From sequence record DRR723986_6171: a stretch of DNA of 34,799 nucleotides. One strand, given 5' to 3'. Below, in pieces: positions 16,133 to 34,096 of the stretch; positions within the stretch are counted from its first letter, which is position 1; the number at the start of each line of letters is the position of its first letter. Position numbers and translations under genes: made by a program. The notes beneath the pieces were generated by a model. It was not told the origin of the DNA and did no database searches. It was given only the letters and a program-made list of their open reading frames with translations.

Positions 16133-16147
16133 TTTGCAGAATGCAAA
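16133..16147. promoter_or_regulatory. LuxO-type enhancer box 1
   Basis: TTTGCA-GAA-TGCAAA perfect dyad about 125 bp upstream of a sigma54 -12 element. Confidence 0.7.
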
Positions 16148-16251
16148 AAAGGCCGTCGCATTATCAGGTTTGCGGTTCATCTCCCTAGTGGCACACGGTG
16201 TATACACCTCCATACATGCGTGAGGCGCCTATTTCCGTCAGTGTATAAAGA

Positions 16252-16267
16252 TGGCCTGGCTTTTGCT
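16252..16267 (+). promoter_or_regulatory. sigma54 promoter of the flippase gene
   Basis: TGGCCTGGCTTTTGCT, GG-N10-GC spacing. Confidence 0.65.
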
Positions 16268-16313
16268 GAGTAAACGCACCAGTCTTTTATTCGCGGTGTT
16301 TCAGGGCAAGGGC

Positions 16314-17561
16314 ATGAAATCAGCAAGCAATTTTCGGCGTAATCTCAGTTGGCTGGCAACCGGCGAACTGATGGTTCGCGTGTCGCGATTGATCACGACA
16401 CTCATCCTGGCTCGCTGTTTGAGTTTGCAGGACTACGGACTCGCGGCGCTCGCGCTAGCGACCGCGGAGATTGTGAGAATTCTTGCTGCCAATGGCATTG
16501 GCAACCTAATCGTCAAAGCTGAGGAGCACAAACTGGGGCGGGTTTCGCAGACGGTGTTTTGGCTTAACCTGTCTATCGGCATCGCGATGTTTGCGCTGCA
16601 GTTTTTCCTCGCCCCCCTTATCGCCGACCTTTACCAATCTCCCGTTTTGGCCTCGCTGTTAAAGGCGCTGGCATTTAGTCACTTAATTTACCCCTTTGCG
16701 ATGGTTCAATTTAACCTCTTACAGCGTGATAGCCGCATGAAGGAAGCGGGTCTGATTATGGGGGCCACGGTGACAATGGATAACTTGATCAGTGCCGCAC
16801 TGGCGCTGAGCGGATTCGGTGTCTGGTCCGTCATTTGGCCCAAGTTATTTGCCGCTGTGGTGTGGGTAGTGGCGATTAATCGGCGTATCCGCTGGGTGCC
16901 CAAGCTGCAATTTTCATTGCAGGAACTGGTGACCGCGCGACGCTATTCCGGAGGGGTATTGCTCGCAGAGTGCTTAAAAAACGGCCGCGGTCAATTTGAC
17001 TTATTTATCCTCGGCCGCCTGTTACCAGCTGACCTGTTTGGGCTTTATGCCTTTGCGCGCAATGCCGGTCTGGGAATCAGTCTGTCGCTGACAAACAGCT
17101 TTAATACGGCCTTGCTGCCGAAACTGTGTGATACCCGTCGCGAGGGTGGCGCACTGGAGCCGAGTTATTACGCAAGTTTAAAAACGGCGATGCGACTCAT
17201 CGCGCCAGTGATTCTTTGCCAGGCACTATTGGCGCCGTTATACGTGCCGTTACTGTTCGGCGAGAAATGGGCGCCAGCCAGTGTGCTTGTTGCGCTTTTG
17301 TGTCTGTCGGCGGTTCCTCGAATGGTGTTTGAGTCTGCCAGTATGTATTTTCGTGCGGCTGACAACTTACGCAGTGAAAATCACATTGCCGTGGCCTTCA
17401 CCGCGCTGTTTTGTGCGGTGATCGCGGCGTCGAGTTTTCTGGGAGCGCAAGCCGTCGCCCTGGCGATGATTATTTGCTATCTCGGCGGCGCGTGGGCGGT
17501 ACTCGTGATGATACACCGCGCACCTCGCGGTGTTATTCGCGCGCCCTTATCTGCCGCATAG
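16314..17561 (+). CDS. wzx: Wzx oligosaccharide flippase
   Basis: Polysaccharide-synthesis family topology (LAR.LS..DYGL, many TM helices); start moved to ATG 16314 because ATG 16251 overlaps the sigma54 promoter. Confidence 0.88.
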   Translation: MKSASNFRRNLSWLATGELMVRVSRLITTLILARCLSLQDYGLAALALATAEIVRILAANGIGNLIVKAEEHKLGRVSQTVFWLNLSIGIAMFALQFFLAPLIADLYQSPVLASLLKALAFSHLIYPFAMVQFNLLQRDSRMKEAGLIMGATVTMDNLISAALALSGFGVWSVIWPKLFAAVVWVVAINRRIRWVPKLQFSLQELVTARRYSGGVLLAECLKNGRGQFDLFILGRLLPADLFGLYAFARNAGLGISLSLTNSFNTALLPKLCDTRREGGALEPSYYASLKTAMRLIAPVILCQALLAPLYVPLLFGEKWAPASVLVALLCLSAVPRMVFESASMYFRAADNLRSENHIAVAFTALFCAVIAASSFLGAQAVALAMIICYLGGAWAVLVMIHRAPRGVIRAPLSAA

Positions 17562-17635
17562 CGCCACTGCGCTCGGCGTGCTTACCCCGTCTTTTATTTT
17601 CCCCTGATGATCGTCGCTTTAGCCGGCAAGCTGCC

Positions 17636-17648
17636 TTGCAAAATGCGA
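17636..17648. promoter_or_regulatory. LuxO-type enhancer box 2
   Basis: TTGCA-AAA-TGCGA (1 mismatch), followed by an AT-rich IHF-like tract (AAACATGCAGTTA, 17705-17717). Confidence 0.65.
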
Positions 17649-17732
17649 ATAGCTTTGCAGTAGCGGTAAAGTTTTTTAGCGATGATTTTTAAAATTGTTA
17701 ATAAAAACATGCAGTTAATTTAATTTTTTGTT

Positions 17733-17748
17733 TGGCATAGCGGTTGCA
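17733..17748 (+). promoter_or_regulatory. sigma54 promoter of the sugar transferase operon
   Basis: TGGCATAGCGGTTGCA, near-consensus -24/-12. Confidence 0.8.
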
Positions 17749-17785
17749 ATTTCCCTGGAAAGCGAACACCAATGGGGTAATTGAT

Positions 17786-18475
17786 ATGCAAGCAATAAAG
17801 AATCAGGTCTCCAGTGCCTACCTAATTTTTATTTCCAGTCTGTTCATGCCCGCCGGGTTATCTCTGCGGAAATTTCTACGCAGTGGTTATAAGCGTAGCT
17901 ACGACATTGTATTAAGTGGCGGATTGCTATTGCTGCTGTCACCGCTACTCGTCGTTACAGCGGCGGCCATTCTTTTTGAAAGCCGCGGCCCAATTTTCTT
18001 CCGTCAGCAGCGTGTCGGAAAGAATGGCGAGCAGTTTTCAATTTATAAGTTTCGGTCGATGTGTACTGACAGAGCACTGCATAGACAAGTGGAATCAATG
18101 TCAGGTGACCGGGATGGTATCTGCAAGAAATTCGTAAACGACCCTCGCGTGACACGGGTAGGGCAGTTTATTCGCAAATACTCAATCGATGAGTTACCGC
18201 AGCTGATTAATGTACTGCGCGGCGAAATGTCGATGATCGGTCCGCGCCCGGCACTGCCTGCAGAAGTGGCTCAATACAGCGAGTATCAGCGCGGACGTTT
18301 GAAGGCATTACCTGGAATTTCAGGCCTATGGCAGGTGTCTGGCCGAGCGGATTTGAATTTTGATCAGCAGGTGGAGCTGGATCTGCAGTATATCCGCCAA
18401 CAAAGCCTAGCCACTGATTTGCGAATAGCGTTGAAAACGGTACCCGCAGTGTTGTCGGGAAGCGGAGCGTATTGA
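17786..18475 (+). CDS. Priming sugar transferase (monotopic phosphoglycosyl transferase, Bac_transf family)
   Basis: KRSYD, RVGKNG, YKFRSM, DPRVTRVG, SIDELPQL.NV, GPRP, PGISGLWQV; start ATG 17786 lies downstream of the promoter. Confidence 0.93.
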   Translation: MQAIKNQVSSAYLIFISSLFMPAGLSLRKFLRSGYKRSYDIVLSGGLLLLLSPLLVVTAAAILFESRGPIFFRQQRVGKNGEQFSIYKFRSMCTDRALHRQVESMSGDRDGICKKFVNDPRVTRVGQFIRKYSIDELPQLINVLRGEMSMIGPRPALPAEVAQYSEYQRGRLKALPGISGLWQVSGRADLNFDQQVELDLQYIRQQSLATDLRIALKTVPAVLSGSGAY

Positions 18476-18534
18476 AGAGCGGGCCGTCGGGTATCTGCCC
18501 GGCACTGCCAGTAATAGTGAATGAGGAACCAGCG

Positions 18535-19551
18535 ATGAAAAATAATCACTCAGCACACCGCGATCAGCCCTTAGTGAGCGTTGTTATCCCAATGTATAAC
18601 GCGGCGGCCTATCTTCGCGAATGTATTGACTCTGTTATTGCGCAGAGCTATCCACACCTGGAGATAATTGCGGTGGATGACGGGTCTCCGGACAACGGTG
18701 CCGACATCGTGCGGGGCTACCAGGACTCGCGCATTGTGGTTATTCAGCAAGAAAACAGGGGCTTGGCCGGTGCGCGCAATACCGGTATTCGCCACGCGCA
18801 CGGCGAATTTATTGCCCTGCTAGACGCTGACGACAGCTGGCATTCGACGAAAATTGCCAGGCATGTAGATCATCTCCTGTCCAACCCTGACATCGGTGTT
18901 AGCTACAGTGCATCGCGGTTTATGAACGAAGCCAGTGTCGATATGGGGATCGGCCAATACCCGAAAACAACGGGCGTCACGGCAGTCGATGTATTTTGTC
19001 GAAACCCGGTGGGCAATGGCTCTGCGCCCGTCTTCCGCGCAGGCGTATTTAAGGACATCGCCTTCACGAACGCTGCTGTCGGCCATCGCGACCAGCAATT
19101 CTTCGATGAATCCTTTAGACAGTCCGAGGATGTGGAATGCTGGTTACGGATTGCGCTCTCGACGTCGTGGCGATTCGAGGGGCTGGCGCAGGCCTTAACG
19201 AACTACCGAGTAAACGGAGGCGGCTTATCGGCGAACTGGGTCAAGCAATTGGCCGCCTGGGAGCGCAATGTCGACAAAAATCGCGCGCTGTCGCCATCAT
19301 TTTTTAACGACCACGAAGGCTTGGCGCGTGCCTACCAGTATCGCTACCTTTGCCGGCGTGCCATTCAATCTCGAGATGCGAAGAATGCGGCGCTGTTATT
19401 GCTGAAATCACTGCGCAGTGACTGGACGATCTCGCTTAGGGATCCTGTAAAAACGGTGCTAACGGCCGGATGCGCATCGCTGTTGCTGATTCTTCCCACT
19501 CGCGGATACGACACTGTTGAGCGACTGATTATGTCGTCAATGCCGTCATAG
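18535..19551 (+). CDS. Glycosyltransferase family 2
   Basis: VSVVIPMYN, VDDGSPD, ARNTG, LDADD, SED; GAGGA RBS before ATG 18535. Confidence 0.93.
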   Translation: MKNNHSAHRDQPLVSVVIPMYNAAAYLRECIDSVIAQSYPHLEIIAVDDGSPDNGADIVRGYQDSRIVVIQQENRGLAGARNTGIRHAHGEFIALLDADDSWHSTKIARHVDHLLSNPDIGVSYSASRFMNEASVDMGIGQYPKTTGVTAVDVFCRNPVGNGSAPVFRAGVFKDIAFTNAAVGHRDQQFFDESFRQSEDVECWLRIALSTSWRFEGLAQALTNYRVNGGGLSANWVKQLAAWERNVDKNRALSPSFFNDHEGLARAYQYRYLCRRAIQSRDAKNAALLLLKSLRSDWTISLRDPVKTVLTAGCASLLLILPTRGYDTVERLIMSSMPS

Positions 19552-19563
19552 GTGCGCCGGCAA

Positions 19564-20277
19564 ATGGAGTCCTTAACAAAGCTCGTTGTCAGGCGCGCCC
19601 CGCATTATCGGCGGTGGCTCGCCTTGCCCTCCTTGTGGCCACTGACATTGAGCCTGGCGATTTTGTTCTCGGTACTGATGTTGTCGAATACCCTGGGCGT
19701 GTCGCCAGAGGCGCTCATAGATGGTCGCACCGGCAGCAGAGGCCAGGCGGATTGGTACGATGGTTTGCTGGCGAAACTCAGTACCATAGTCTTGGGTATG
19801 AGTGCCGCCATATTGCTATTTGCCGTGTATCTACGGCGGCAGGATGAGCGCTTCCATTGTCGCAGTAGCGCCAGCTTTTGGTTTGCAAGTTATACCCTGT
19901 TATTGCTTTTGCATGATTTATTCTCTGCGCCGATGACAACCGGCAGTATTTTGGTTGATGTTATCCGAGCCTGTTTCCAAGCGGCGTTGGGTTTGTTAGC
20001 GCTTCTTCTACTTTGGCTGTTTCGCGGGGTTGTCGGCCGGTCGCGACGCTATGCGCTGACTGCGGCGATGTGCTGGGGTATTTCCGTTAGCGTTGATGTA
20101 CTGATCGACAGTGGCATCAGCAATGGTGTTGCGCTATTGCAGCTAGAGGAGGGAGCGAAACTGCTGGGTATTTTTTTCTGGGGTCAGTTCTGTGTAGAGC
20201 TTTCCAGCCGCAGTATTCGCGAGCCGGCACATATTGGCCGTCGTACTCCACCGCCTCTGGGTGACCACTATGAATAA
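19564..20277 (+). CDS. Hypothetical integral membrane protein
   Basis: About 6 hydrophobic segments, EEGAKLLG motif, overlaps the next gene. Confidence 0.7.
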   Translation: MESLTKLVVRRAPHYRRWLALPSLWPLTLSLAILFSVLMLSNTLGVSPEALIDGRTGSRGQADWYDGLLAKLSTIVLGMSAAILLFAVYLRRQDERFHCRSSASFWFASYTLLLLLHDLFSAPMTTGSILVDVIRACFQAALGLLALLLLWLFRGVVGRSRRYALTAAMCWGISVSVDVLIDSGISNGVALLQLEEGAKLLGIFFWGQFCVELSSRSIREPAHIGRRTPPPLGDHYE

Positions 20278-21064
20278 ACCACGCTTGATCTTCACGTTGG
20301 CCCTTAACGGTTATCACTTACGCTATCGGCAGTGCATTGCTGCTCAGCGGCAATACGCCGAGCGTGTCGGCGCCGAGTACCTAGCCGTTACCAAGCCAAG
20401 TGTGCACTCGCTGTGCAATGAGGTGGCCTGGCTAAAGTTGTACTTGATTCGAGACGCCTTGCAATGCGGCTACGCCGAGGTCATGTTTATAGACGCCGAT
20501 GCGCAGCCGCGTGCAGACGCCCCTGACTTTAGCGAGGCTATGTCCGTCGGAAAATCGATATTTGCGGCCAACGGGTATTCGGGGCGTATTAATTCTGGGG
20601 TGTTGATATTTCGCGCTGGGCCCGAATCACTGGCGTTTTTAAACCGTGTTATCGCCGCAATGACAATGACACTGCCGCAAGAGGATGAAGTGGGCTGGGG
20701 CGAAAACGGGCACATTATTCATTTCCTGAAAACGGAGAGCCGCTTTCAGCGTATCTCGTCGCGCTGGAATAATAATTATTGCCCGCAGATGAATGACTAT
20801 ATTCGCCACTACAGCGCTGGCCCGCTGCGCGACATGTTCAAGCCGCGATTAGGCGAAGTCATTGGCTTTTATGGCTATCGTATAATCATGCGATTGTTAC
20901 GCAGTATCGCAAAGGCTGAATCGGGCGGCTCTCCCTCACAGCAGCTGGAAGCGTTGTGCAAAGCTGTCCGCACAAACCTTCCCCGCAATAGTGCGCTGTC
21001 GACAGCCACTCCCCGGATTACGCCGCACATTTATTGCGAAAATAGTTTGCCCCACAAAAAGTAA
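20270..21064 (+). CDS. Putative GT-A fold glycosyltransferase (GT34/galactosyltransferase-like)
   Basis: WLKLYLI, FIDADA (DxD), INSGV, WNN, late His (RHY). Confidence 0.65.
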   Translation: MNKPRLIFTLALNGYHLRYRQCIAAQRQYAERVGAEYLAVTKPSVHSLCNEVAWLKLYLIRDALQCGYAEVMFIDADAQPRADAPDFSEAMSVGKSIFAANGYSGRINSGVLIFRAGPESLAFLNRVIAAMTMTLPQEDEVGWGENGHIIHFLKTESRFQRISSRWNNNYCPQMNDYIRHYSAGPLRDMFKPRLGEVIGFYGYRIIMRLLRSIAKAESGGSPSQQLEALCKAVRTNLPRNSALSTATPRITPHIYCENSLPHKK

Positions 21065-21103
21065 CGCCGTGGCTAAATAGCGCCCGCCAATGGACGGTGC
21101 AGG

Positions 21104-22045
21104 CTAGCGCTTCAGTAGCAAGGCAAGTTCCCATTTCAATTTCCGTTTTGGCAGTAGCCAGCAACGTTTGTCACGTAGTAAGGCCCGCGCTTTATCATAT
21201 TCGCCGGCCTGTATGTTTAGCTGCGCGATGTGAAGAATATGGTTAGCGGTAAGCCTTAGCATTGCCTTGCTTCGCGGATCGTTGCTTGCCTCGGCTGTGG
21301 CTCGCAGGCGCAGGCTGAATGGGCACTCCTGATCGGGGGGATTACTAATACACGCACGATTGTCGGCATCTTGTCGGTAGAGTGCTTTGTATGACCGGGA
21401 AAAGGCCATTGGGTATTTATAGGCGATTCTCACCCAAAGGTCCTGATCTTCTCCCATTGGCTCGTGCAAAGGAAATGCACCAATCTCCTCGAATACGGAT
21501 TTTGGAATGCAGCAGCTCGACGGGGTAATGGGTAGCTCGCCGCGACTGGCGACTTCGAAAAAATCATAGCTGAACTGGCTGTGATTTTTTGTGCTCGCTG
21601 GAAAGCGCGGATGGATGGGACGCTCTGTTCCGCTGTTTTCGTAATAGTGGGAGTAGGCCGTTGAGTAGGCGCCGCATTCGGGGAATAGGTGAATTAGCGC
21701 CTCGATTTCTTGTATTAACCCGGGTTTCCATAGGTCATCGGCGTCCAGAAACAACAGGTAGTCGGCCGTTGCTGCACTGATGGCAGTATTTCGAGCGGCG
21801 GAAACACCGGCGTTCTCTTGTTCGATAAGGCGAATACGCGAGTCAGATGTTGCCATGCTGCGAACTTTCTCCGGGCCGTCATCGCTGGAGCCGTCATCGA
21901 CAACAATAATTTCCAAGTCGTCGTAGTTCTGCGCCTGTATGGAACGCAGCGCATCGCCAATGTGTGCAGCCTTGTTGTACAGGGGAATAAGAACGGAAAA
22001 CCGAGGTTGTTTGTCTGTGCTGCGGTCAACATTTGAGGTCGTCAT
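21104..22045 (-). CDS. Glycosyltransferase family 2
   Basis: SVLIPLYNK, VDDGSSD, ARNTA, LDADD, GED. Confidence 0.93.
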   Translation of the reverse strand: MTTSNVDRSTDKQPRFSVLIPLYNKAAHIGDALRSIQAQNYDDLEIIVVDDGSSDDGPEKVRSMATSDSRIRLIEQENAGVSAARNTAISAATADYLLFLDADDLWKPGLIQEIEALIHLFPECGAYSTAYSHYYENSGTERPIHPRFPASTKNHSQFSYDFFEVASRGELPITPSSCCIPKSVFEEIGAFPLHEPMGEDQDLWVRIAYKYPMAFSRSYKALYRQDADNRACISNPPDQECPFSLRLRATAEASNDPRSKAMLRLTANHILHIAQLNIQAGEYDKARALLRDKRCWLLPKRKLKWELALLLKR

Positions 22046-22047
22046 GG

Positions 22048-23139
22048 CTAGTGAGTCCAGTTACTGAGGGCCATTTTTTCCGCGTCGGCAAGGGGCAAAC
22101 GGGGCGGGACATAGTCGCCCCGATGTATCGTCGCTATTGCGGTACTTAGCGAGTCTTTGTCGACATGCCGACTATCAATGGCAAAGTCAGTCGATTGCTG
22201 AATATCGCGGCACCAATTTTCGCATTTGCGGTGATAGTTCAGGGAAATACACGGGGTATTGCTGAGGTAGGCAAAGACCGCCGCATGGAGTCGCATCGCC
22301 ACGATCATTGATAGCTTGCTGATTTCCCTAACGGCCTCATAGGGGTTTGGGTTGTAGGGAATAATCTTGCAGGGCGTCTCGCCAAGTCGCGCGCATAAAT
22401 CACGGTGTACTTGTTGATCTCCTAATGTGGGGTGCCCATTGAAGTCGATCAAGCGTATCTCCGCGCCGGTTTCGCGATGATGTTGAATCAGGGCGTCGGC
22501 GAGTATCTGGTTGCGCACATGTTCAGCGTTCTCATCGCCGGTGAGCCGTTCGACGGGACAAAGTGCAACGCCGATAGCGTTGTCGCGCTCGGGCATTAGC
22601 GCGTGCTGGAACGCGGGCTGGCTGATCATACTAGGGGCCAGGTCGAAGGTCAGTGCGGTATTGGCGTTGGGAGCGATACTGCGGGCGATATCGAGACTGG
22701 TTTTGTCTCTCAGCCCGGTAAAGGTGCAGGCATTTAGGAATGTTGCGCAGGCTTTTTCTGCCGCTACGTCATTGAATGGGCCCAGGCCGACGCCTGCTGC
22801 ACAATGCTGGTTGCTGGTAGCGAGTTTTAAATAGTGGGTTTTTTGCGCAATATCTTTTGCGGTATGGAAGACAGATCCGCCGCCGATGATAATGTGCTCG
22901 CTGCGCGCCGCGGCCCAATACTTGAGCAGTCGATCCTGGCCTTTGAAACGCTGCTTTTTTGCCTGCACGGCGCTTAGCTGCAGTTGCTGCAAGGCTTCAC
23001 TGCCGCTGGCGCTAGTGGCGGCAATATGCCGGCTGTGATATCGGCGGCGCGCGCCCTCAGCAGCGGCGGCCATGAGCATATCATCGCCGGTATTTTGCAT
23101 GCCGTAATAGCCGATAAGCAGGGTGTCGAAGGCAGCCAT
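22048..23139 (-). CDS. Polysaccharide pyruvyl transferase (CsaB/WcaK-like)
   Basis: GYYGMQNTGDD, GGGS, GVGLGP, LRD..S, DLA, MRLHA, Y..K. Confidence 0.9.
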   Translation of the reverse strand: MAAFDTLLIGYYGMQNTGDDMLMAAAAEGARRRYHSRHIAATSASGSEALQQLQLSAVQAKKQRFKGQDRLLKYWAAARSEHIIIGGGSVFHTAKDIAQKTHYLKLATSNQHCAAGVGLGPFNDVAAEKACATFLNACTFTGLRDKTSLDIARSIAPNANTALTFDLAPSMISQPAFQHALMPERDNAIGVALCPVERLTGDENAEHVRNQILADALIQHHRETGAEIRLIDFNGHPTLGDQQVHRDLCARLGETPCKIIPYNPNPYEAVREISKLSMIVAMRLHAAVFAYLSNTPCISLNYHRKCENWCRDIQQSTDFAIDSRHVDKDSLSTAIATIHRGDYVPPRLPLADAEKMALSNWTH

Positions 23140-23156
23140 TTTTTTGGGGTTCCTAA

Positions 23157-25810: not shown

Positions 25811-25831
25811 GTCACTTCCCAGCCGCGCAGA

Positions 25832-27109
25832 TCAAAAGAGTGAAAAGGGAGTGGCGACGTCGACAATCGCTCTGGCGATATCACGCCAATTCCCTATTGT
25901 AGAGTCATAGCAGCTAACGGTGTCGTTGGGTAGTAAATAGGGATTGATATCGTCGGAATCTGGATTGCGCAGCAGTTCTTCGACATTGCGTTTCATAATT
26001 TCGCTCTCGCCACTGATGGGGTTAGTGCCCACCAACACGACGTAGCGTGAGGCATTGGTGAATTGCGTGCCGCCACTGCAGTTGCCCGATACCACCGCCT
26101 GATGTAACCGCGTGCCGTAGGGCATGCTGCTGCTGTACTTGCCCACTGCCGCAGAGGCGTTGTTGCTTGCTGGATTGGTCAAATTTGAAATGAACACCCG
26201 TATTCCCTTTGGCGTGATTTGACTCGGGCGAATCAGCTCGGCTTGCATGCAGCCTGCTGAGGGAACGATCACTTGATCGCCTGCAATCAACGGTACGTCG
26301 TAGGTGTGCTGGCCCGAAAATATCCCTGCGAGATTGATTTCTTGCTGCCAGCCGTCGCGAATCAGCAGAATTTTGTCTACACGCGCGTCAGGGCGTGCAC
26401 CCGCTGCTGCGCGTATGGCTTCACTGAGGTAGCGTTTGGTGGGGTAGTCGCCGCTGATGCGAATTTTACTATCGTCGGTCTGCGCGGGAATCAGGTCGTT
26501 GATGAGTACGCGGCCAGGCTCAAATACCGCGCCTGACACCGAAACCATAATGGGGGCCCACTGAAGCGGGCGCACACTGATGTGAAGGGTGTGGGCGAGA
26601 AACATTTGTTGGGCAACCAGCATGATGCGCAGGCGGTTCTCCACTTCTTCGGTGTCCAGTCCAACCACCTGCACCGGGGCGAGGTAGGGAAGCTCAATAT
26701 TGCCATCGTGGTTAACCAAGTACTCGCCGCTGAACTCCTCCCCTTCATGGATGCGAATTTCGATCCTGTCGCCCGGTGACAGTGGCAGCAAGCGCCGGCC
26801 TTGGCTGTTCAGCGATCGCGGGGTACCGGGATTTCGCCACTGCTGTGCTAAGGGCTCATCGACACGATAGTCCGCACTGTTCAGCGTCATGCCGCTGCCA
26901 TCGGTCGAGCAGGTATTCACCGCCATGCGACTGCTAAACTCGTGGCGTTGTTCCACCTCTGACTTGTCGCGCTCAGGCAGGCTTGTCGAAATATCCGGCA
27001 TCGACGCACAGGCCGCCAGCGTTAATGCGACACTGGCGAGGACGGCGCGGCGGCAGCGTCGCGGCGTGAAAAGGCGGTGTGAAGATAGGGTCCATTTGGC
27101 AATGTTCAT
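25832..27109 (-). CDS. wza: Wza-type outer-membrane polysaccharide export lipoprotein
   Basis: Lipobox LAAC, LSPGDRI..DGNIELPYL, SLBB repeats (VSGAV.EPG), C-terminal amphipathic helix. Confidence 0.88.
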   Translation of the reverse strand: MNIAKWTLSSHRLFTPRRCRRAVLASVALTLAACASMPDISTSLPERDKSEVEQRHEFSSRMAVNTCSTDGSGMTLNSADYRVDEPLAQQWRNPGTPRSLNSQGRRLLPLSPGDRIEIRIHEGEEFSGEYLVNHDGNIELPYLAPVQVVGLDTEEVENRLRIMLVAQQMFLAHTLHISVRPLQWAPIMVSVSGAVFEPGRVLINDLIPAQTDDSKIRISGDYPTKRYLSEAIRAAAGARPDARVDKILLIRDGWQQEINLAGIFSGQHTYDVPLIAGDQVIVPSAGCMQAELIRPSQITPKGIRVFISNLTNPASNNASAAVGKYSSSMPYGTRLHQAVVSGNCSGGTQFTNASRYVVLVGTNPISGESEIMKRNVEELLRNPDSDDINPYLLPNDTVSCYDSTIGNWRDIARAIVDVATPFSLF

Positions 27110-27173
27110 AGCGCTTTCCTGCTGCTGATTAGGTTGATCTCACTGCTATTGTGAGACGGCATATCTTGGATAT

Positions 27174-27189
27174 TGCAGGGGGCGTGCCA
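27174..27189 (-). promoter_or_regulatory. sigma54 promoter of the wza operon
   Basis: Minus strand TGGCACGCCCCCTGCA. Confidence 0.75.
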
Positions 27190-27253
27190 GCTGATGTGAA
27201 TAAAAATATGCTTTAAAAACAGTAGGATAGTGTTTTTTGTCGAGGGCGGTGAA

Positions 27254-27293
27254 TTGCAAAATGCAAATCGTGGCTTGCGTTTGCATTTTGCGA
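27254..27293. promoter_or_regulatory. Tandem LuxO-type enhancer boxes 3a and 3b
   Basis: TTGCA-AAA-TGCAA (27254-27266) and TTGCA-TTT-TGCGA (27281-27293). Confidence 0.75.
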
Positions 27294-27349
27294 ATCATAT
27301 TGCTGGAGGGTGCGCCACCGCAGTGGCGGTATACGATGTGGTGCGATCC

Positions 27350-28591
27350 TTAGCTCTGGCTGGCCTGCCGCAGCCTGAGTAGAAACAGAGGGTTGCCAAT
27401 GATGTAGCGCTTCCACATCCGGCCCGGTTCTTGTAGTAGCCGCCAAATCCATTCCATACCCAACTCACGCAGCCACAGGGGCGCTCGGGAGACCTTCTCG
27501 GCATAGAAGTCGAACAAGCCGCCAACGGCGATGACGACTGGGCTATTTAGTTGCTCCCGGTGGGCGAGAATCCACTGTTCCTGGAGGGGTTGACCCATGC
27601 CGACCAGCAGCACGTCCGCCCCGCTATCGTTAATTTTATCGACGATGTCCTGGCAGTGCTGTTTGTCGAAATAGCCGTGCTGTGTGCCGGCGCTTCGCAA
27701 GTGTGGCTGTTGCTTCAACATTGCCTGCATCGCGGCATCGGCAATTCCGTCTTCACCGCCGAGCATGAACAGGCGCTGGCCGCGTTGGGCGAGTTGCTCG
27801 CACAGCAAAGGCAGCATATCGGTGCCGTTTACATTGCCCTTACGGCGAATACCGTTGCGCCGACAGGCCATTTCGATACCGCTGCCATCGGGCAGCATAT
27901 AGTCTGCTTGATTCAGTTGTGATCGCAGTTCGCTGTCATTGTAGGCGAGATTTAAGGTGTGGGCGTTCGCGAAGAAAACTGTCGCACGATGTCGATGTGT
28001 CACGTGCTTATTAATCACCGAAAGTGCGTTTTCCATTGAGATGTTGGCGATGTTTACGCCAAAAATCGTAAAACTGTCGACGTCTTTCAGAGTTTTGCCG
28101 CCGCTGTACAACAGGCCTGCCAGCAGCGATTTGCCGATGATGGCAGCATCTGTTTTGAATCCCTGCTTGTCGGCGTATTCGAGATTGCAGGCCTCTTCGT
28201 CGATAAAGTCGATACCAGAAATTCGTCGCAGTTCGAACAGTGAAAACATACCGGGATTCAGGGTTTCGGTACCCGCTGCAGCGGGCTCTTGCTCGGTGCG
28301 CGCTCGGTAACCGACCAGTGCCAGCTCGCCTTTAATAACGTTTAGGAGCAACGGCAGGCGACTGAGATTTACCTGATCGTGCAGCAGTAAGGCGGGCACG
28401 CCATCACCGGCAGCGCTGTGCAAGGTGACGCGGTCAACGATTTTTTTGCCTTTAATCAGGCGAAAAAGGCTATGAACGAAAAGCCACGGAGCGAAGGCTA
28501 ACGCGGCTGCCACTGCCAATATACGGTCTGTTTTTTTTACACAGCGTGGCTGGGCGCTGAGCGATTTGTTGTAAACGGTGTGATGGCGCAT
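27350..28591 (-). CDS. WecB/TagA/CpsF (GT26) glycosyltransferase with N-terminal degenerate sugar-transferase domain
   Basis: C-terminal FANAH, PDGSG, NGTD, HGYF, GMGQPLQE.W, VGGLFDF, RAP, EW.WRL..EP.R. Confidence 0.9.
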   Translation of the reverse strand: MRHHTVYNKSLSAQPRCVKKTDRILAVAAALAFAPWLFVHSLFRLIKGKKIVDRVTLHSAAGDGVPALLLHDQVNLSRLPLLLNVIKGELALVGYRARTEQEPAAAGTETLNPGMFSLFELRRISGIDFIDEEACNLEYADKQGFKTDAAIIGKSLLAGLLYSGGKTLKDVDSFTIFGVNIANISMENALSVINKHVTHRHRATVFFANAHTLNLAYNDSELRSQLNQADYMLPDGSGIEMACRRNGIRRKGNVNGTDMLPLLCEQLAQRGQRLFMLGGEDGIADAAMQAMLKQQPHLRSAGTQHGYFDKQHCQDIVDKINDSGADVLLVGMGQPLQEQWILAHREQLNSPVVIAVGGLFDFYAEKVSRAPLWLRELGMEWIWRLLQEPGRMWKRYIIGNPLFLLRLRQASQS

Positions 28592-28624
28592 GCTGGCATC
28601 CTCTCGGCTGTTTAGAGCTAAAGG

Positions 28625-28640
28625 GGCAATGCCTGTGCCA
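28625..28640 (-). promoter_or_regulatory. sigma54 promoter of the TagA/WecG-like gene
   Basis: Minus strand TGGCACAGGCATTGCC; IHF-like AATCATAGACTTA at 28658-28670 (minus). Confidence 0.8.
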
Positions 28641-28739
28641 GGCGCGTAAAATTATTTTAAGTCTATGATTTATAAGTGATTGCCAAAGGGTTAGGTGGGT
28701 TTTTAACGGCGCAGAGAGTGGTTCGATAGCCAGCATGAT

Positions 28740-28752
28740 TTGCATTTTGCAA
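28740..28752. promoter_or_regulatory. LuxO-type enhancer box 4
   Basis: TTGCA-TTT-TGCAA, exact TTGCAW3TGCAA. Confidence 0.75.
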
Positions 28753-28802
28753 TGCAACTGGCTTGCCGGTGATGCTAAGCCGCACTGCGAGAAACATTAG
28801 GC

Positions 28803-31526
28803 TTAGAATGACCGCGCTTCTAACTCAGCGACCGCATGATTGAGGGCCTCTTTGCCCGACGAGAATTTCTCGCCGGATACCGAAAGTAGCTCCATAAGAA
28901 GCTGGGTATTTTCAGCATCGCAGCATTTTTCGATCTGCAAACAATAGTCCTGCAACGACGTTGCGCCGCAATAACCAAGATTACTTTTCGCGGAGTGCAC
29001 GGCGTCGCGAAGCCCGGCGAGTGCTGGTTGATCGACGGAGTCCGCAATCGCTGCAGTCAGAGACTGCAACTTATCAAGCTGCTCCACGACCATTTTTAAA
29101 ATAATGAGCGCGGTCTCTAACCCTGTATCGACAACGAGTTGTTCAAGGATCGTGGTGTCTATCTCCGCGGCATACAGGGCTGCAGTGAGTGTTGCGGTGT
29201 TGCCCACGTCATCTTGGGAGCTGGACGCAGCGGTTTGTTCAACAGGCAGCCAGGACTCAAGTGTGTTCAGCAATTCATCGCGGTTTACCGGTTTAGACAG
29301 GAAACCATCCATGCCCGCGTCTTCACAGCGCTTTACATCGGTATCGAAGGCATTGGCGGTCATTGCGATAATTGGGGTGTTGCGCTCTTTACCGGGCAAT
29401 TGGCGGATGTGTCGGGTTGCCTCTAAACCGTCCATTTCAGGCATGCGCAAATCCATTAGCACCAAGTCGTAGCGGCCACTGGTTACGGCCATTAATGCCT
29501 CAATGCCGTTGGCGACGATGTCGACTTGATAGCCGGCGCGCAACAACAGAGTCTTCGCGACTAACTGGTTTGCTTCGTTATCCTCTGCGAGTAGGAGCTT
29601 GTGCCGGCTTGGGTTTATTTCGTCGGTGGTGTGTTCATCGGCGGGCTCCGATTCGGCGTCGCCGTCGAGAATGGCAAGGAGCTGGCTCGGCCGAAAGGGG
29701 CGATACATCATATGTTGGAAGCCGGCCTTGCTACTGTGTTGCAAGAGTTCCGCCGAAAAATTGCGGTTGTACAGCACCACTTGTTGAATGGGGATCTGCT
29801 GCGCCATCAATAACGTGCTCAATTTTTCCGGTGTGGCAAAGCAGCGCATGTCCACGATCAGTATGTCGCGTGCAGATAATTTCGGAAGGTTCTCTAAGGC
29901 ACGAATTGCGATGGCTTCTATGCCCAGCCAGTCCGCTTGTTGCAGTATGCTGGCAAGCAGTGTTTTGTTGTCGCTCCGCAAAAACAGCTTGCCTGGTGCG
30001 CGTTTTGGCTTTGCCAGGCTGGGAAGGCTAGTGCTGCTTGCATTGACCGGTATCTCAACGCGGAACCGGCAGCCTTCGCCTTTTTTGCTCGTCAGCGAGA
30101 TTCTGCCGTCGAGCAATTCAGTCAGTTTTTTACATATGACTAAGCCAAGGCCCGTGCCGCCGTGAACGGCGCTGTCACTATTATCTACTTGAGAGAATTC
30201 ATTAAATAACTTCTCTTGATCCTCTTCTGAAATCCCAACCCCAGAGTCGCGCACTTCAAGTACCAGTCCGAGTCGGCCGTCAGCCAGTTTTTCATCGGTT
30301 TGAGAGATTTTTAGATTTACGCCGCCAGAGTCAGTGAACTTAATCGCGTTATCGAGAAGGTTGGTGACGATTCGCCGTACAAAGCTCAGGTCACTGATTA
30401 CCGTTTTCGGTATGCGGGGGTCGATGCAGGCGGAGATCTCGATATCTTTATTTACCGCGCGAATGGTTGATACCTCCATCACGCGCTCACATTGCTCTAA
30501 TAAACTGAACTTGCTGGAGTGAATTTCTTGTTGCCCGGACTCGATTTTTGAAAAGTCCAGCACGTCTTCTATGACGCTTAATAAACTATTGCCTGCCGCA
30601 AGTGAGGTCTCTGCCAGCATGCGTTGCTCGGTGGATAAATCGCCTTCAAGCAGCAGGTCCATACAGCCAATAACGGCGTTCAGGGGCGAGCGAATCTCGT
30701 GGCTCATATGCGCGAGAAAGCTGGATTTAGCCTTACTGCTTGCAACTGCGGTTTCCCTTGCCTGAGTAAGCGCTTTTTCCCGCTCGATGCGCGTTGTAAT
30801 GTCTCGAATGGTTGCGGTAAAGAAGGTTTGCCCTTCGAATTCGGCAGTGGGAACAACGGTTAGCTCGCAGGGGAAGAGGCTGCCATCTCGCCGGATAGCT
30901 TCTACTTCTATCCGCGTATTCAGCACAGGCCCCTGCCGGGTCTTATTGAAGTTGGCCATGCCCTCGTTGTGAGATTTTCTCATGCCGTGGGGAATGACGA
31001 TGTCCGCCACATGTTTACCGACCACCTCTTCCCGGGTGTAGCCAAAGAGTTGTTCCGCAGAGCTGCCAAATTCATGGATGACGCTCTTGTCATCAATGGT
31101 AATGATGGCGTCGAGGCTGGACTCGTACAGTGAGCGGGAGATGATTTCCAGGTGCTTTTGCTGGCGTTGAATACGACTCAGCCCCAATCGATCGGGGTAG
31201 ATCGTCAGTAGAAAACGCCCCGGCGGCTCATCAGAGGCCGTAAGGTGGAGGATAAGCGGCTCGCCATCCATGGTTGCGGCAAAGCTTTGCGATGCGACGC
31301 CAGCCGCCGCCCCGGATTTGAGTGAATGCAGCGCAGCACTGGGCAGGCGGTCACGTAGTTTGTCTCCCGGACTGACTGACGCGAGAGACCGAAGTGTATC
31401 GATAGGACCGCGGTGCAGAATGCGGGTAATGGTGCCCTCGTGGTCGATCTCAAATTCAGCCCAGCTTTCAATACTTCTGCTGCCAGCCTGCGGCTGCTTT
31501 GAGGGACGATCGTCAGTCATAAGCAT
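28803..31526 (-). CDS. Cytoplasmic hybrid histidine kinase: PAS-HisKA-HATPase-degenerate REC-REC-Hpt
   Basis: H box MSHEIRSPLN, NAIKFT, DSGVG, GTGLGL; REC AEDN..MDLRMPEMDG..SKP; Hpt VHSAKS; no TM segment. Confidence 0.93.
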   Translation of the reverse strand: MLMTDDRPSKQPQAGSRSIESWAEFEIDHEGTITRILHRGPIDTLRSLASVSPGDKLRDRLPSAALHSLKSGAAAGVASQSFAATMDGEPLILHLTASDEPPGRFLLTIYPDRLGLSRIQRQQKHLEIISRSLYESSLDAIITIDDKSVIHEFGSSAEQLFGYTREEVVGKHVADIVIPHGMRKSHNEGMANFNKTRQGPVLNTRIEVEAIRRDGSLFPCELTVVPTAEFEGQTFFTATIRDITTRIEREKALTQARETAVASSKAKSSFLAHMSHEIRSPLNAVIGCMDLLLEGDLSTEQRMLAETSLAAGNSLLSVIEDVLDFSKIESGQQEIHSSKFSLLEQCERVMEVSTIRAVNKDIEISACIDPRIPKTVISDLSFVRRIVTNLLDNAIKFTDSGGVNLKISQTDEKLADGRLGLVLEVRDSGVGISEEDQEKLFNEFSQVDNSDSAVHGGTGLGLVICKKLTELLDGRISLTSKKGEGCRFRVEIPVNASSTSLPSLAKPKRAPGKLFLRSDNKTLLASILQQADWLGIEAIAIRALENLPKLSARDILIVDMRCFATPEKLSTLLMAQQIPIQQVVLYNRNFSAELLQHSSKAGFQHMMYRPFRPSQLLAILDGDAESEPADEHTTDEINPSRHKLLLAEDNEANQLVAKTLLLRAGYQVDIVANGIEALMAVTSGRYDLVLMDLRMPEMDGLEATRHIRQLPGKERNTPIIAMTANAFDTDVKRCEDAGMDGFLSKPVNRDELLNTLESWLPVEQTAASSSQDDVGNTATLTAALYAAEIDTTILEQLVVDTGLETALIILKMVVEQLDKLQSLTAAIADSVDQPALAGLRDAVHSAKSNLGYCGATSLQDYCLQIEKCCDAENTQLLMELLSVSGEKFSSGKEALNHAVAELEARSF

Positions 31527-31619
31527 TTACGTAGTCGCGAAAGGTAATCTGAGTATTTGATATCTGGTCGGCGCAGTCAATTTCCGCCTGGCTGGCGATA
31601 TTGCTGAGTTGCAGAACAG

Positions 31620-31634
31620 TTTGCATTTTGCAAA
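31620..31634. promoter_or_regulatory. LuxO-type enhancer box 5
   Basis: TTTGCA-TTT-TGCAAA perfect dyad between the divergent kinase and REC-Hpt/activator genes. Confidence 0.75.
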
Positions 31635-31740
31635 GCAATATAGGATGTTGGTGATAAAAATTGTCGCTGTTCTGGCTGTCGTTCGCCGCAAAGTAGGCTA
31701 ACAACATGATAGTTATAACAAAGTTGCTGTTGTAAGTACT

Positions 31741-31756
31741 TGGTGCCGATATTGCG
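31741..31756 (+). promoter_or_regulatory. Putative sigma54 promoter of the REC-Hpt/activator operon
   Basis: TGGTGCCGATATTGCG, GG-N10-GC with TTGC. Confidence 0.55.
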
Positions 31757-31804
31757 TAGTCATGGGAGAAAATTATTTTCGCCACCGCAGCGCAGAGGTA
31801 AAAA

Positions 31805-32584
31805 ATGATGGCCCGACCGCAAAGCCACTCACTAGTGACACGCAAAGTCTTGGTCGCCGATGATAGCTTGCCCGGCTTATTGGCAGTAAAGGCCATGCTT
31901 GAGGCTGAGGGCATCATCTGCGATACCGCCAATGATGGAAGCAGCGCACTGGCAAAAGCGCAACACGAGCGTTACGACGCACTGTTGTTAGACGAGCACA
32001 TGCCGGGGCTGCAGGGGTCGGCGATATGCGTTGCGCTGCGAGGGGAGTCGGGCCCTAACCAGCATGCCATGATTATTTCGCTCAGCGGCGAACAAGGGAG
32101 CGGGCACCGCGCGGTAATGGACGCAGCGGGCTTTGACGCGATGTTGGCGAAGCCGGTCAGTAAGCTGGCGCTGGTGTCCGTACTGAGCGAATCGGGCGAC
32201 AGTGAGTCATCCATCAAGGGCGATGACATAGCCGGCTTCGGCGATGACGAAGCGTTGCTCGATGTAGCAGTGCATCGCGATATGCAGGAACAGTTCGACC
32301 CGGCTACGGTTGCGCGTTTGTTTGGGCTGTTTATTGACGAATTATCAGTATTGTCGGCGCGTTTGAGTACCGCCATCGATCATAATTCAGAGACTGAAGT
32401 CATGGCCGTTGCGCATATTCTAAAAAACTCGGCGGAGTTGTACGGCGCCAAACGCCTGTCGTGTCTGGCCCGCTATATCAATGAAACGCCACCAAGTGGC
32501 CGAGAGCAAATCATCGAACTTGCCGAACAGTTGCTGGCGGTGTGTCATGAAACACGTCAGAAAGTTCAGGTAGAGCTGCTGTAG
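31805..32584 (+). CDS. Receiver-Hpt phosphotransfer protein
   Basis: REC (VADD, LLDEHMP, AKP) plus Hpt (AHILKNSA..YGA.RL). Confidence 0.87.
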   Translation: MMARPQSHSLVTRKVLVADDSLPGLLAVKAMLEAEGIICDTANDGSSALAKAQHERYDALLLDEHMPGLQGSAICVALRGESGPNQHAMIISLSGEQGSGHRAVMDAAGFDAMLAKPVSKLALVSVLSESGDSESSIKGDDIAGFGDDEALLDVAVHRDMQEQFDPATVARLFGLFIDELSVLSARLSTAIDHNSETEVMAVAHILKNSAELYGAKRLSCLARYINETPPSGREQIIELAEQLLAVCHETRQKVQVELL

Positions 32585-32620
32585 TCGTGTTATTTTTTAA
32601 AAATCTGCGGAGGGCATTCA

Positions 32621-34060
32621 ATGTCTGAGGGATCGCAAAAGCTGGTATATGTTGTGGAAGACAGTGTGTCCAGCGGGGCCCTTTATAGCAGTTACCTCGA
32701 GGCCGCTGGTTATGCGGTGTCGCATTTTATTGACGGCCATTCCGCCCTGGTAGCTATCAAGGAAAAGATGCCAGATATCTTGGTGCAGGATGTCTGCCTA
32801 CCCGACATCAGTGGTATGGAGGTAATGCGCTTTACCAAAGCGCGTGCCGATATTCCGGTGATCATTATTACCGCTAACAGCTCCATCGATATCGCCGTTG
32901 AGGCGATGCGCGATGGCGGCTTCGATTTTATAGAAAAGCCGTTTTCCAAGGACAGACTGATCGCCGCTGTTGCCGATGCCGCGCAGCAGTCGACCTTAGA
33001 TCAGGGACAAGTCACTGCTGGTGCCACGGCGGCATCAAAACCCCGGCCAATCCGAGCTGTAAGAGAGCATTTTGTCGGCGAGTCCTCGGTAATGGAGAGC
33101 ATTTATCAGCTTCTCGACAGCGCGGCCCGCAGTAAGGCGAGTGTGTTTGTCACTGGCGAAAGTGGCACCGGCAAGGAAGTGTGTGCGCAAGCGCTGCACG
33201 ATGCCAGCTCGCGCGCTTCCGGGCCGTTTATTCCCGTTAACTGCGCGGCGATCCCCGCTGAGTTATTCGAGTCGGAAATTTTTGGCCATGAAAAAGGCGC
33301 CTTCAGCGGCGCGGTGTCCCAGCGCAAAGGTGCGGCCGAGTTAGCCAATGGTGGCACCCTGTTTCTCGACGAGATCGGCGAAATGGATTTGGCCTTGCAA
33401 GCAAAACTGCTTCGCTTTTTGCAAACCGGGACGTTTAGTCGAGTCGGTGGCCAAAAAATGATGCACTCAGATATACGCATTGTTTGCGCCACAAACCGCG
33501 ATCCAGAAGACGCTGTTCGGCAGGGGCAGTTCAGGGAAGACCTCTATTATCGTTTAAATGTTATTCCGGTTAAGTTGCCGCCCTTGCGTGACAGGGGCAG
33601 GGATATTATCGCCTTGGCGACGCATTTTCTGGCAGAGAAGTCCGCGGCAAATAACAAAGTATTTCGTGGGTTTACCGATGCGGCGATGGAGCTGTTACTC
33701 AGCTACGAGTGGCCTGGCAACATTCGCCAATTACAAAATGTTATCGAAAATATCGTGGTGGTCCACGATGAAGAATTCGTCAATGATGACATGCTACGAG
33801 TGGTGACGAGCAGCGTTGTGCCAACGCCACTGACGACATCGTCTCCTGCACCGCAATCGTTAACGGGTGCCGACTCCATGCCGCCAGGCGTCGTAGCGGC
33901 TAAGCCGGGTATTCGTCCATTGTGGATGGTGGAGAAAGAAACCATAGAATCGGCGATCGAGCAGTGTGATGGCAATATCCCGCTTGCTGCGGCATGCCTT
34001 GGTGTGAGTGCATCGACAATCTATCGAAAAATAAAAGCCTGGGAGAAAGATGAGGCATAG
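32621..34060 (+). CDS. sigma54-dependent response regulator, LuxO/SypG-like
   Basis: REC-AAA+-Fis HTH; GESGTGKEVCA, GAFSGA, FLDEIGEM; LuxO-like segments SAARSKASVF, LLRFLQTGTF, PLWMVEK..IE.AIE.CDGNIP.AA..L.VS.STIYRK..AW. Confidence 0.93.
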   Translation: MSEGSQKLVYVVEDSVSSGALYSSYLEAAGYAVSHFIDGHSALVAIKEKMPDILVQDVCLPDISGMEVMRFTKARADIPVIIITANSSIDIAVEAMRDGGFDFIEKPFSKDRLIAAVADAAQQSTLDQGQVTAGATAASKPRPIRAVREHFVGESSVMESIYQLLDSAARSKASVFVTGESGTGKEVCAQALHDASSRASGPFIPVNCAAIPAELFESEIFGHEKGAFSGAVSQRKGAAELANGGTLFLDEIGEMDLALQAKLLRFLQTGTFSRVGGQKMMHSDIRIVCATNRDPEDAVRQGQFREDLYYRLNVIPVKLPPLRDRGRDIIALATHFLAEKSAANNKVFRGFTDAAMELLLSYEWPGNIRQLQNVIENIVVVHDEEFVNDDMLRVVTSSVVPTPLTTSSPAPQSLTGADSMPPGVVAAKPGIRPLWMVEKETIESAIEQCDGNIPLAAACLGVSASTIYRKIKAWEKDEA

Positions 34061-34096
34061 CCTTGTGCTACCTCAACGGCAGGCAGATGGTGTTGT

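Follow-up and report, generated by a model that had tools for sequence, protein, structure and literature searches.

The DNA stretch DRR723986_6171 is 34,799 nucleotides long (hereafter the window, with position 1 as its first nucleotide). Between 16133 and 34060, it carries a cluster of exopolysaccharide (EPS) genes beside a hybrid sensor kinase, a phosphorelay protein, and a response regulator related to LuxO, here called the activator. LuxO is the textbook integrator of quorum sensing, and its DNA site and small-RNA (sRNA) targets are known almost only from the Vibrionaceae. Here, we describe six LuxO-type enhancer boxes that lie upstream of five sigma-54 or sigma-54-like promoters of the locus, and we consider it likely, from comparison of the sequences, that the LuxO-family activator binds these boxes and drives the five promoters, its own included. 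The source organism is a marine bacterium outside Vibrio, most closely related to Spongiibacter and Zhongshania, in keeping with an earlier reading made from the DNA alone (the sequence-only reading), which had proposed a non-Vibrio host.

Genes of the locus

The genes and operons were assigned as follows.

16315..17561, plus strand: Wzx-type flippase (Pfam Polysacc_synt_3, 1.5e-50)
17744..21064, plus strand: sugar-transferase operon (Pfam and NCBIfam profile matches)
21104..27109, minus strand: export and polymerization operon of five genes (profile matches)
27350..28591, minus strand: WecG/TagA-family glycosyltransferase with an N-terminal partial sugar-transferase domain (Pfam)
28803..31526, minus strand: soluble hybrid sensor kinase, PAS-HisKA-HATPase-REC-Hpt (Pfam)
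31805..32584, plus strand: REC-Hpt phosphorelay protein (Pfam)
32621..34060, plus strand: LuxO-family sigma-54 enhancer-binding response regulator, REC plus AAA+ (GAFSGA loop) plus HTH_8 (NCBIfam, Pfam, PDB, tree)

The flippase open reading frame (ORF) was listed from 16251, but its likely start is the ATG at 16315, as no family match starts before residue 29 of that ORF. The first gene of the sugar-transferase operon encodes a polyprenyl-phosphate sugar transferase (likely start, 17787) and is followed by a GT2 gene (18472 to 19551) and two ORFs without assignment (19552 to 20277 and 20234 to 21064). The minus-strand operon encodes, in order of transcription, a Wza-like exporter (25832 to 27109), a chain-length-determinant-like protein (24404 to 25810), a Wzy-like polymerase (23157 to 24464), a pyruvyl transferase (22048 to 23139), and a GT2 protein (21104 to 22045). 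The hybrid kinase retains its H-box, receiver Asp, and Hpt His motifs, and the REC-Hpt protein likewise has the expected phospho-acceptor motifs. A REC-Hpt gene also lies directly 5' of the activator in the related loci L001, L240, and L243.

Enhancer boxes and sigma-54 promoters

Boxes were located by pattern scan. Promoters were located either by scanning for the consensus TGGCAC-N5-TTGCW, with at most one mismatch for the strong class, or by inspection.

16134..16146: box 1, TTGCAGAATGCAA, 5' of the flippase promoter
16252..16267, plus strand: P1, weak sigma-54-like, TGGCCTGGCTTTTGCT, for the flippase (inspection; kept in the nearest genome, G001)
17636..17648: box 2, TTGCAAAATGCGA
17733..17748, plus strand: P2, sigma-54, TGGCATAGCGGTTGCA, for the transferase operon (consensus scan)
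27174..27189, minus strand: P3, sigma-54, TGGCACGCCCCCTGCA, for the export operon (consensus scan)
27254..27266 and 27281..27293: boxes 3 and 4, TTGCAAAATGCAA and TTGCATTTTGCGA, in tandem with centers 27 bp apart
28625..28640, minus strand: P4, sigma-54, TGGCACAGGCATTGCC, for the WecG gene (consensus scan)
28740..28752: box 5, TTGCATTTTGCAA
31621..31633: box 6, TTGCATTTTGCAA, in the divergent intergenic region between kinase and regulator
31741..31756, plus strand: P5, weak sigma-54-like, TGGTGCCGATATTGCG, for the REC-Hpt/activator operon (inspection)

The pattern TTGCANNNTGCRA gave 10 strand matches in the window, which amount to the six sites above. In 100 dinucleotide-preserving shuffles, the mean was 0.40 strand matches, the largest number was 3, and none of the 100 reached 10. 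Three of the six boxes are perfect copies of TTGCAWWWTGCAA, and the other three are off by one position each, namely a G in the spacer of box 1 (16134) and a TGCGA right half in boxes 2 and 4 (17636 and 27281). The left half, TTGCA, is invariant in all six, and the right half TGCAA also fits the TGMDW of the SypG enhancer. Every box is intergenic when checked against the ORF list of the window, and no seventh box was found there even when one mismatch to TTGCAN3TGCAA was permitted. The distance from the box center to the GC of the -12 element was 125 bp at P1, 104 bp at P2, 84 and 111 bp at P3, 119 bp at P4, and 127 bp at P5. The sequence-only reading had reported six intergenic copies of TTGCA-N3-TGC(A/G)A, no others in the window, and a spacing of about 85 to 130 bp in the correct orientation; the copies were recovered where it had placed them, in excess of the shuffles, and the measured spacing was 84 to 127 bp. 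It had also pointed to integration host factor (IHF)-like sites in two of the gaps, and such sites (WATCAANNNNTTR, one mismatch) do lie between box and promoter at 28658 (P4) and 31699 (P5), but they number 20 across the whole window, so that the gaps are only mildly enriched.

The strong -24/-12 elements, with at most one mismatch, are those at 17733 (plus), 27189 (minus), and 28640 (minus). Parts of the arrangement recur in related loci. An element identical to P2 precedes the sugar-transferase genes of L240, and the TGGTT(C/T)-N6-TTGC form of P5 is conserved in L238, L245, L246, L247, and L249. Moreover, the tandem boxes at the P3-equivalent promoter are found in L239, L240, L242, L247, and L249, and a box stands at the position of box 6 in nine more related loci. 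P5 lies in front of the activator's own operon, which implies autoregulation.

Identity of the activator

The activator combines a REC domain, a sigma-54 AAA+ domain, and a Fis-type helix-turn-helix (HTH), and its Asp57 aligns with the phospho-acceptor Asp of LuxO. Among NCBIfam models, it scored highest with LuxO (NF041946; 560.8 bits), followed by NtrC (405.7 bits) and PrsR (TIGR02915; 354.6 bits), but it missed the cutoffs of all three (800, 558.6, and 502.6 bits, respectively). By comparison, the Vibrionaceae LuxO representative P0124 scored 828.8 bits on the LuxO model and shares 228 of 466 residues (about 49%) with the activator. The best match among solved structures in the PDB was LuxO 5EP0. 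The recognition helix, STIYRK, is identical between the activator and Vibrionaceae LuxO, and the HTH stretch GNIP-AA--L-VS-STIYRK is identical at 27 of 45 positions, whereas identity to NtrC-like paralogues of the same genome is 6 of 38 and 15 of 45. Thus, with LuxO giving the best profile, the best structure, and an identical recognition helix, 32621 to 34060 does encode a LuxO relative, as the sequence-only reading had it. Like PrsR of PEP-CTERM/exosortase systems, which is linked to EPS loci, and like NtrC, the activator is a sigma-54 response regulator, but it differs from both in its subcutoff scores and from the NtrC-like paralogues in its HTH, and no match to an exosortase family was found among the 17 locus ORFs scanned.

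The activator departs from LuxO in a linker residue. According to the accessible text of Boyaci et al. (PMC4878744), a glycine of the R-C linker (Gly141 in V. angustum and Gly145 in V. cholerae) is kept in every LuxO protein and inserts into the ATPase site. This position is occupied by Gly in both Aeromonas and the Vibrionaceae representative, but by His in the activator and, in the clade to which the activator belongs, mostly by H, Y, N, D, E, K, or S. That clade, clade A, was recovered in a tree of 84 rows (LG+G4, short search, SH-aLRT support only, no SypG sequence included), where it has 16 rows and an SH-aLRT support of 100. Its members come from Zhongshania, Spongiibacter, some Pseudoalteromonas, Shewanella, Alishewanella, Rheinheimera, Colwellia, Psychromonas, Marinomonas, Aliiglaciecola, and Porticoccaceae. 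Vibrionaceae LuxO (support, 99) instead groups with a Pseudoalteromonas/Aestuariibacter clade, clade B, and Zobellella (SH-aLRT, 96), and the smallest set that unites clade A with LuxO has 49 rows and weak support. Nonetheless, the approximately unbiased (AU) test did not reject clade A and Vibrionaceae LuxO as one clade (p 0.374). In the best tree, the activator falls into a clade apart from LuxO, and a sister relation of the two is compatible with the AU test. A candidate for SypG itself, P0148, was rejected, as it belongs to the Alteromonadales clade B.

How widely such proteins occur depends on the group sampled. LuxO-like proteins (E of at most 1e-120 on the LuxO model) were present in 14 of 301 sampled gammaproteobacterial genomes, none above the cutoff, and no Vibrionaceae LuxO was found in the class-level samples of 301 and 401 genomes. 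In the order of genome G238, which proved to consist of one non-Vibrio family, LuxO-like proteins (E of at most 1e-130) occurred in 31 of 55 genomes, often in several copies. We note that genomes of that gammaproteobacterial order (loci L038 and L152 among them) hold up to five LuxO-like paralogues each, some adjacent in tandem (for example, G314:C93, 7882 to 9237 and 9270 to 10604). In the window's own order, 4 of 251 sampled genomes matched clade A, 3 of them in its own family, a rarity that fits an accessory, transferred module. Metagenome relatives numbered 80 at 35 to 49% identity, with 76 of the 80 under 45%, and the ESM Atlas returned generic sigma-54 regulator clusters only. The LuxO of Aeromonas caviae (668.5 bits) has no box nearby. 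The replicon that carries it in our set, L250 (NZ_AP026896.1), is filed as a plasmid with 18 annotated features, but at 4.9 Mb, it is evidently a chromosome.

Boxes and promoters in related genomes

Genome-wide statements rest on G001, the nearest genome and not the window's own strain. Its activator is 100% identical to that of the window, and the DNA is 98.3 to 98.7% identical over 1 to 5896 and 16252 to 34799. rpoN is present in G001 (508.5 bits, above the cutoff). The exact W3 box, TTGCAWWWTGCRA, occurs at five sites in this 3.6-Mb genome, all within the locus, and the sixth site of the locus is a variant palindrome, TCGCAAAATGCGA. Boxes with one mismatch number 33 elsewhere in G001; 32 of the 33 lie inside open frames of at least 135 amino acids, and none of the 33 has a sigma-54 element (at most two mismatches, 60 to 200 bp away) nearby. 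Thus, the genome-wide scan for boxes combined with -24/-12 elements that the sequence-only reading had proposed confined the exact form to the locus. The activator is the only LuxO-like activator of G001, and the next one scored 367.5 bits on the LuxO model. One possible extra member of the regulon was noticed at C2:172866 of G001 (L259, 401 to 413; L288), where a palindromic variant box, TCGCAAATTGCGA, is separated by 80 bp from a weak element, TGGTATCAATTTTGCG (TGGTAT...TTGCG), and the two precede a gene for a 698-amino-acid DUF6923/GEVED/DUF4842 protein. That this gene encodes an extracellular protein under the same control is possible but only a lead.

Boxes and activator go together across the family. 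Activator orthologues (65 to 70% identity) were present in 16 of 40 genomes of the GTDB family of G001, and perfect TTGCAWWWTGCAA boxes were found in all 16, at 58 sites in total. In the 24 genomes that lack the activator, perfect boxes were found in 4, at one site each, and a reversed-pattern control over the same 40 genomes gave 8 sites. The distribution of the activator is patchy even within the genus (11 of 28), and the family genomes are kin, not independent samples.

Pairing of boxes with promoters was measured over 15 loci (267 kb), comprising the window, 11 family loci, and the loci of Spongiibacter thalassae, Litorivivens, and Pseudomaricurvus. A box of at most one mismatch was counted as paired when it was followed, 60 to 200 bp downstream and in the right orientation, by a sigma-54 element with invariant GG and GC and no more than two mismatches. 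The set held 66 boxes, 41 of them paired, against a mean of 2.9 pairs and a maximum of 9 in 1,000 trials of random box placement. The distances of the paired boxes were mostly 83 to 149 bp. Many of the 25 unpaired boxes lie in the divergent region between kinase and regulator, near the weaker conserved TGGTT(C/T)-N6-TTGC. When the boxes of the 15 loci were aligned, they formed an extended palindrome, TGaT-TTGCAWWWTGCAA-AtCA.

The window and G001 cannot be aligned 5' of P1 because of a 10.4-kb insertion at 5897 to 16251 of the window, and a box is nevertheless kept in both, 118 bp from the conserved P1 in the window (box 1) and 116 bp in G001 (the variant TCGCAAAATGCGA). Judged by its retention within unrelated flanks, the box appears to be a natural footprint.

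The sequence-only reading had also claimed that the circuit has no Qrr layer, and the searches agree. A search of the window returned no Rfam family, even with E values of up to 1 allowed, and the best Qrr match in G001 scored 19.3 bits against a gathering score of 50. Moreover, no orphan pair of a box and a good sigma-54 promoter was found outside the locus in G001.

RNA evidence came from library contigs at 95 to 99% identity, from four runs of three studies, in which the contigs of X2 and X3 were identical. The contigs cover the operons of the locus, and those over P1, P2, and P5 begin 28 to 80 bp downstream of the -12 GC, at 16295 near P1 (X1, with an adapter tail), at 17803 near P2 (X2 and X3), and at 31792 (X1), 31832 (X2 and X3), and 31834 (X5) near P5. 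These contigs hint weakly that the units are transcribed as predicted, as contigs cannot prove starts or levels. The kinase region from 28794 to 31250 was nearly uncovered by the X2, X3, and X5 contigs, which cannot show absence.

Cargo of the sister loci

The core of kinase, REC-Hpt protein, and activator was conserved in all annotated family loci, and the neighboring cargo differed. Pfam matches show an EPS cluster like that of the window in L240 and L247, and the layout of boxes, promoters, and ORFs indicates one in L238, L239, L241, L242, L245, and L249. In L243, L001 (the same site as L244), L003, L289, and L291, the cargo is instead a Tad-like system with a secretin, a TPR protein, a CpaF-like ATPase, and TadB/C-like proteins. 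The pilus-type genes of the Tad-like loci are preceded by the same boxes and sigma-54 promoters, and in L289, all five boxes are paired, four of them with elements of at most one mismatch. Thus, the regulon is not specific to EPS, the genes to which the sequence-only reading had tied it, since the same boxes appear to drive Tad-like pilus genes in sister genomes.

Some neighbors of the Tad-like genes deserve mention. Proteins of about 126 to 129 amino acids without a Pfam family are encoded seven in tandem in L289 (10267 to 14715), twice in L291 (8277 to 8663 and 10122 to 10505), and once in L001 (4605 to 4985). Their genes sit behind LuxO-type boxes and sigma-54 promoters and adjoin the Tad-like genes, and the proteins may be secreted or pilus subunits of that system. 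L247 additionally carries an EAL phosphodiesterase and a second hybrid kinase. In L003, an EAL phosphodiesterase and an H-NOX protein are encoded nearby, and a hybrid kinase stands on each side of the activator. There, in Pseudomaricurvus alcaniphilus, the H-NOX gene and an Hpt hybrid kinase lie directly 3' of the activator (11537 to 14155) and the EAL phosphodiesterase lies 5' of it. The arrangement recalls the nitric oxide/H-NOX inputs to LuxO and SypG in Vibrio. HahK is named in the accessible text of PMC8941931.

Discussion

How the activator might control the locus can be outlined from what was found in silico: the boxes, the promoters, the protein domains, their co-occurrence and conservation, and the RNA contigs over the genes. 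The locus would be a self-contained, horizontally mobile switch for the biofilm matrix. The domains of the hybrid kinase (28803 to 31526) and the REC-Hpt protein (31805 to 32584) suggest a phosphorelay that would phosphorylate Asp57 of the activator. The activator would then bind the TTGCA-W3-TGCAA boxes through its LuxO-identical recognition helix, loop the DNA from about 85 to 130 bp upstream, and open the five promoters in a manner presumably dependent on rpoN. Four of the promoters would express the Wzx/Wzy-type EPS genes, and the fifth would express the activator's own operon, which would amount to positive feedback. The sign of regulation would thus be positive, and no sRNA layer would intervene in EPS activation. 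Clade A, which occurs in the Spongiibacteraceae among other groups, lacks the autoinhibitory linker glycine; the mechanics of switching on and off may therefore differ from those of LuxO.

Several observations weigh against this account. Taken alone, the three strong promoters do not exceed chance (1.78 expected; at least 3 in 25 of 100 shuffles). P1 and P5 match the -24/-12 consensus poorly, with three mismatches each, and neither inspection nor the consensus scan gave a recognizable sigma-54 promoter for the kinase gene. The activation loop of the activator reads GAFSGA, not GAFTGA. One X1 contig, 23675 to 28411, runs across P3 and its boxes, and may reflect upstream read-through or DNA in the library. 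Finally, 28 of 42 wider LuxO-like loci lack a box (at most one mismatch) within about 1.5 kb of the activator, and use of the box is therefore seen for clade A and the published Vibrio cases only.

Direct control of EPS genes by a relative of LuxO has precedents, and we think it unlikely, but worth weighing, that the activator is an orthologue of SypG or ScvE and the cluster a divergent syp/scv locus of an already described family. In the accessible text of PMC8941931, ScvE is the SypG orthologue that activates the scv EPS locus, and scv/syp-type loci are counted in 148 species and 28 genera of aquatic bacteria, among them Cellvibrionales members, Marinomonas, Psychromonas, Pseudoalteromonas, and Shewanella, some of the loci lacking sypE and sypF. 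Thus, direct sigma-54 control of EPS by a LuxO relative is a known design, also outside Vibrio. The design is moreover the same here as with SypG/syp of V. fischeri, ScvE/scv of V. parahaemolyticus, and RbdG of V. vulnificus: a LuxO-related sigma-54 response regulator and an Hpt hybrid kinase sit inside a Wzx/Wzy cluster of several operons, each with a -24/-12 promoter and an upstream enhancer, for direct EPS activation. The parts differ, however. No SypA (STAS)- or SypE-like domains, and hence no SypA/SypE partner switch, were seen among the 17 locus ORFs scanned, the set of glycosyltransferases is another one (GT2, pyruvyl transferase, and WecG), and, unlike in syp, a REC-Hpt gene lies directly 5' of the activator and the regulator core is predicted to drive Tad-like pilus genes in sister genomes. 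Among the best 120 relatives of the activator, down to 49% identity, none came from Vibrio or Aliivibrio, which makes it probable that SypG falls outside clade A. The phospho-acceptor Asp lies at 54 to 62 in clade A and at D53 in ScvE, which is weak evidence.

The enhancers distinguish the systems less sharply than the sequence-only reading had held. As far as the accessible text of PMC10162802 goes, the upstream activating sequence of LuxO is TTGCAWWWTGCAA, in agreement with that reading's TTGCAW3TGCAA, and the enhancer of SypG is TTCTCANNNTGMDWN (Ray et al. 2013, quoted there). The boxes of the window are the full LuxO palindrome and not the SypG enhancer, and so far, the contrast drawn in that reading holds. 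The same text, however, describes LuxO and SypG as about 48% identical, SypG as activating qrr1 through sites that are perfect LuxO boxes, and SypG as the only other activator predicted to share the LuxO linker. The contrast was therefore too sharp, as SypG also uses LuxO boxes.

We consider it quite improbable that the activator is instead a true LuxO orthologue in a Vibrio-type quorum-sensing cascade, with an unrecognized Qrr-like sRNA and with the EPS boxes as a side branch. It is the sole LuxO-like protein of G001; a hybrid kinase and an Hpt relay partner accompany it, as they do in LuxQ/LuxU/LuxO; and the AU test does not reject clade A and Vibrionaceae LuxO as one clade. In its domain order, its identity of nearly one-half, its STIYRK helix, the palindrome 5' of sigma-54 promoters, and the predicted phosphorelay with an Hpt step that would feed it, the activator also resembles the LuxO/qrr system of Vibrio. 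But it fell well short of the LuxO cutoff (560.8 against 800 bits), the conserved linker glycine (PMC4878744, as far as its text was accessible) is replaced by His, the loop is GAFSGA, and the partners of Vibrionaceae LuxO in the best tree are clade B and Zobellella (SH-aLRT, 96), not clade A. In place of sRNA genes, the activator is predicted to control EPS operons that encode proteins, along with its own operon; no Qrr was found in the window or G001, and no box with a good sigma-54 promoter was found off the locus in G001. Finally, the locus is patchy and island-like, present in 16 of 40 family genomes and matched in 4 of 251 genomes of the order. Judged by score and linker residue, the activator would not count as a LuxO orthologue or equivalog; the best tree points the same way, and the AU test (p 0.374) did not reject one clade with LuxO.

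That the boxes serve another factor, or that they are repeats carried along by the island, with a coincidental link to the activator in either case, has almost nothing to recommend it beyond the shortness of the palindrome and the predicted nature of the binding, as boxes were found in 16 of 16 activator-positive and 4 of 24 activator-negative genomes, keep a fixed distance to sigma-54 promoters (mostly 83 to 149 bp), are conserved within nonhomologous flanks, and match the published site of LuxO, whose recognition helix equals that of the activator.

We conclude that the activator of the window is, by comparison of sequences, LuxO-like at the DNA and SypG-like in its wiring, and that it probably activates biofilm-matrix genes directly, in a manner similar to that of SypG. 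In open-access text, excluding the supplementary genus and gene lists of PMC8941931, we found no report of clade A, of protein-coding promoters outside the Vibrionaceae that use the full LuxO palindrome, of a REC-Hpt partner, of a lost linker glycine, or of an exchange between EPS and Tad cargo. The locus thus presents a natural non-Vibrio case in which the LuxO helix and palindrome stand at protein-coding biofilm genes, without the sRNA layer or the linker-glycine lock. Its regulon is compact and clearly bounded, with six boxes, five promoters, and none elsewhere in G001, and sister genomes exchange EPS for Tad-like cargo. These features make the system tractable for the study of how LuxO and SypG circuits evolved, of enhancer wiring that moves with an island, and of LuxO-type AAA+ control without the glycine. 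Moreover, a box with a -24/-12 element at about 85 to 150 bp provides a rule for predicting regulons in many marine gammaproteobacteria.

Why a LuxO relative would control matrix genes directly invites speculation. Recognition of the palindrome may be an old trait of the whole LuxO radiation. At first, it would have let a portable cassette of kinase, REC-Hpt protein, and activator turn on genes for the surface and matrix (EPS and Tad-like pili) directly through sigma-54, and the cassette could be rewired to new cargo simply as that cargo acquired boxes. LuxO-Qrr, with autoinhibition by the linker glycine, would have come later, and clade A would represent the pre-Qrr state. We regard this history as tentative and would sooner doubt it than rely on it. 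That the activator is the ancestral state of the LuxO circuit, as the sequence-only reading had suggested, is possible but unsupported at present.

Two further features adjoin the locus. Directly 3' of the activator are two overlapping ORFs without a family match, 34050 to 34397 (plus strand) and 34097 to 34609 (minus strand); the former overlaps the activator stop by 11 nt, and RNA contigs traverse the region. At the other end, the 10.4-kb insertion at 5897 to 16251 is specific to the strain, with only 268 bp in its place in G001, and its right end adjoins the flippase promoter. The insertion encodes Maf-like and SnoaL-like proteins, an amidohydrolase, a second threonyl-tRNA synthetase, a PTPS/QueD-like enzyme, FolE2 (GTP cyclohydrolase IB), a CobW/COG0523 GTPase, and a PPOX-type flavoprotein. 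We take this gene set to resemble a zinc-starvation island with zinc-independent paralogues, of the Zur-regulon type.

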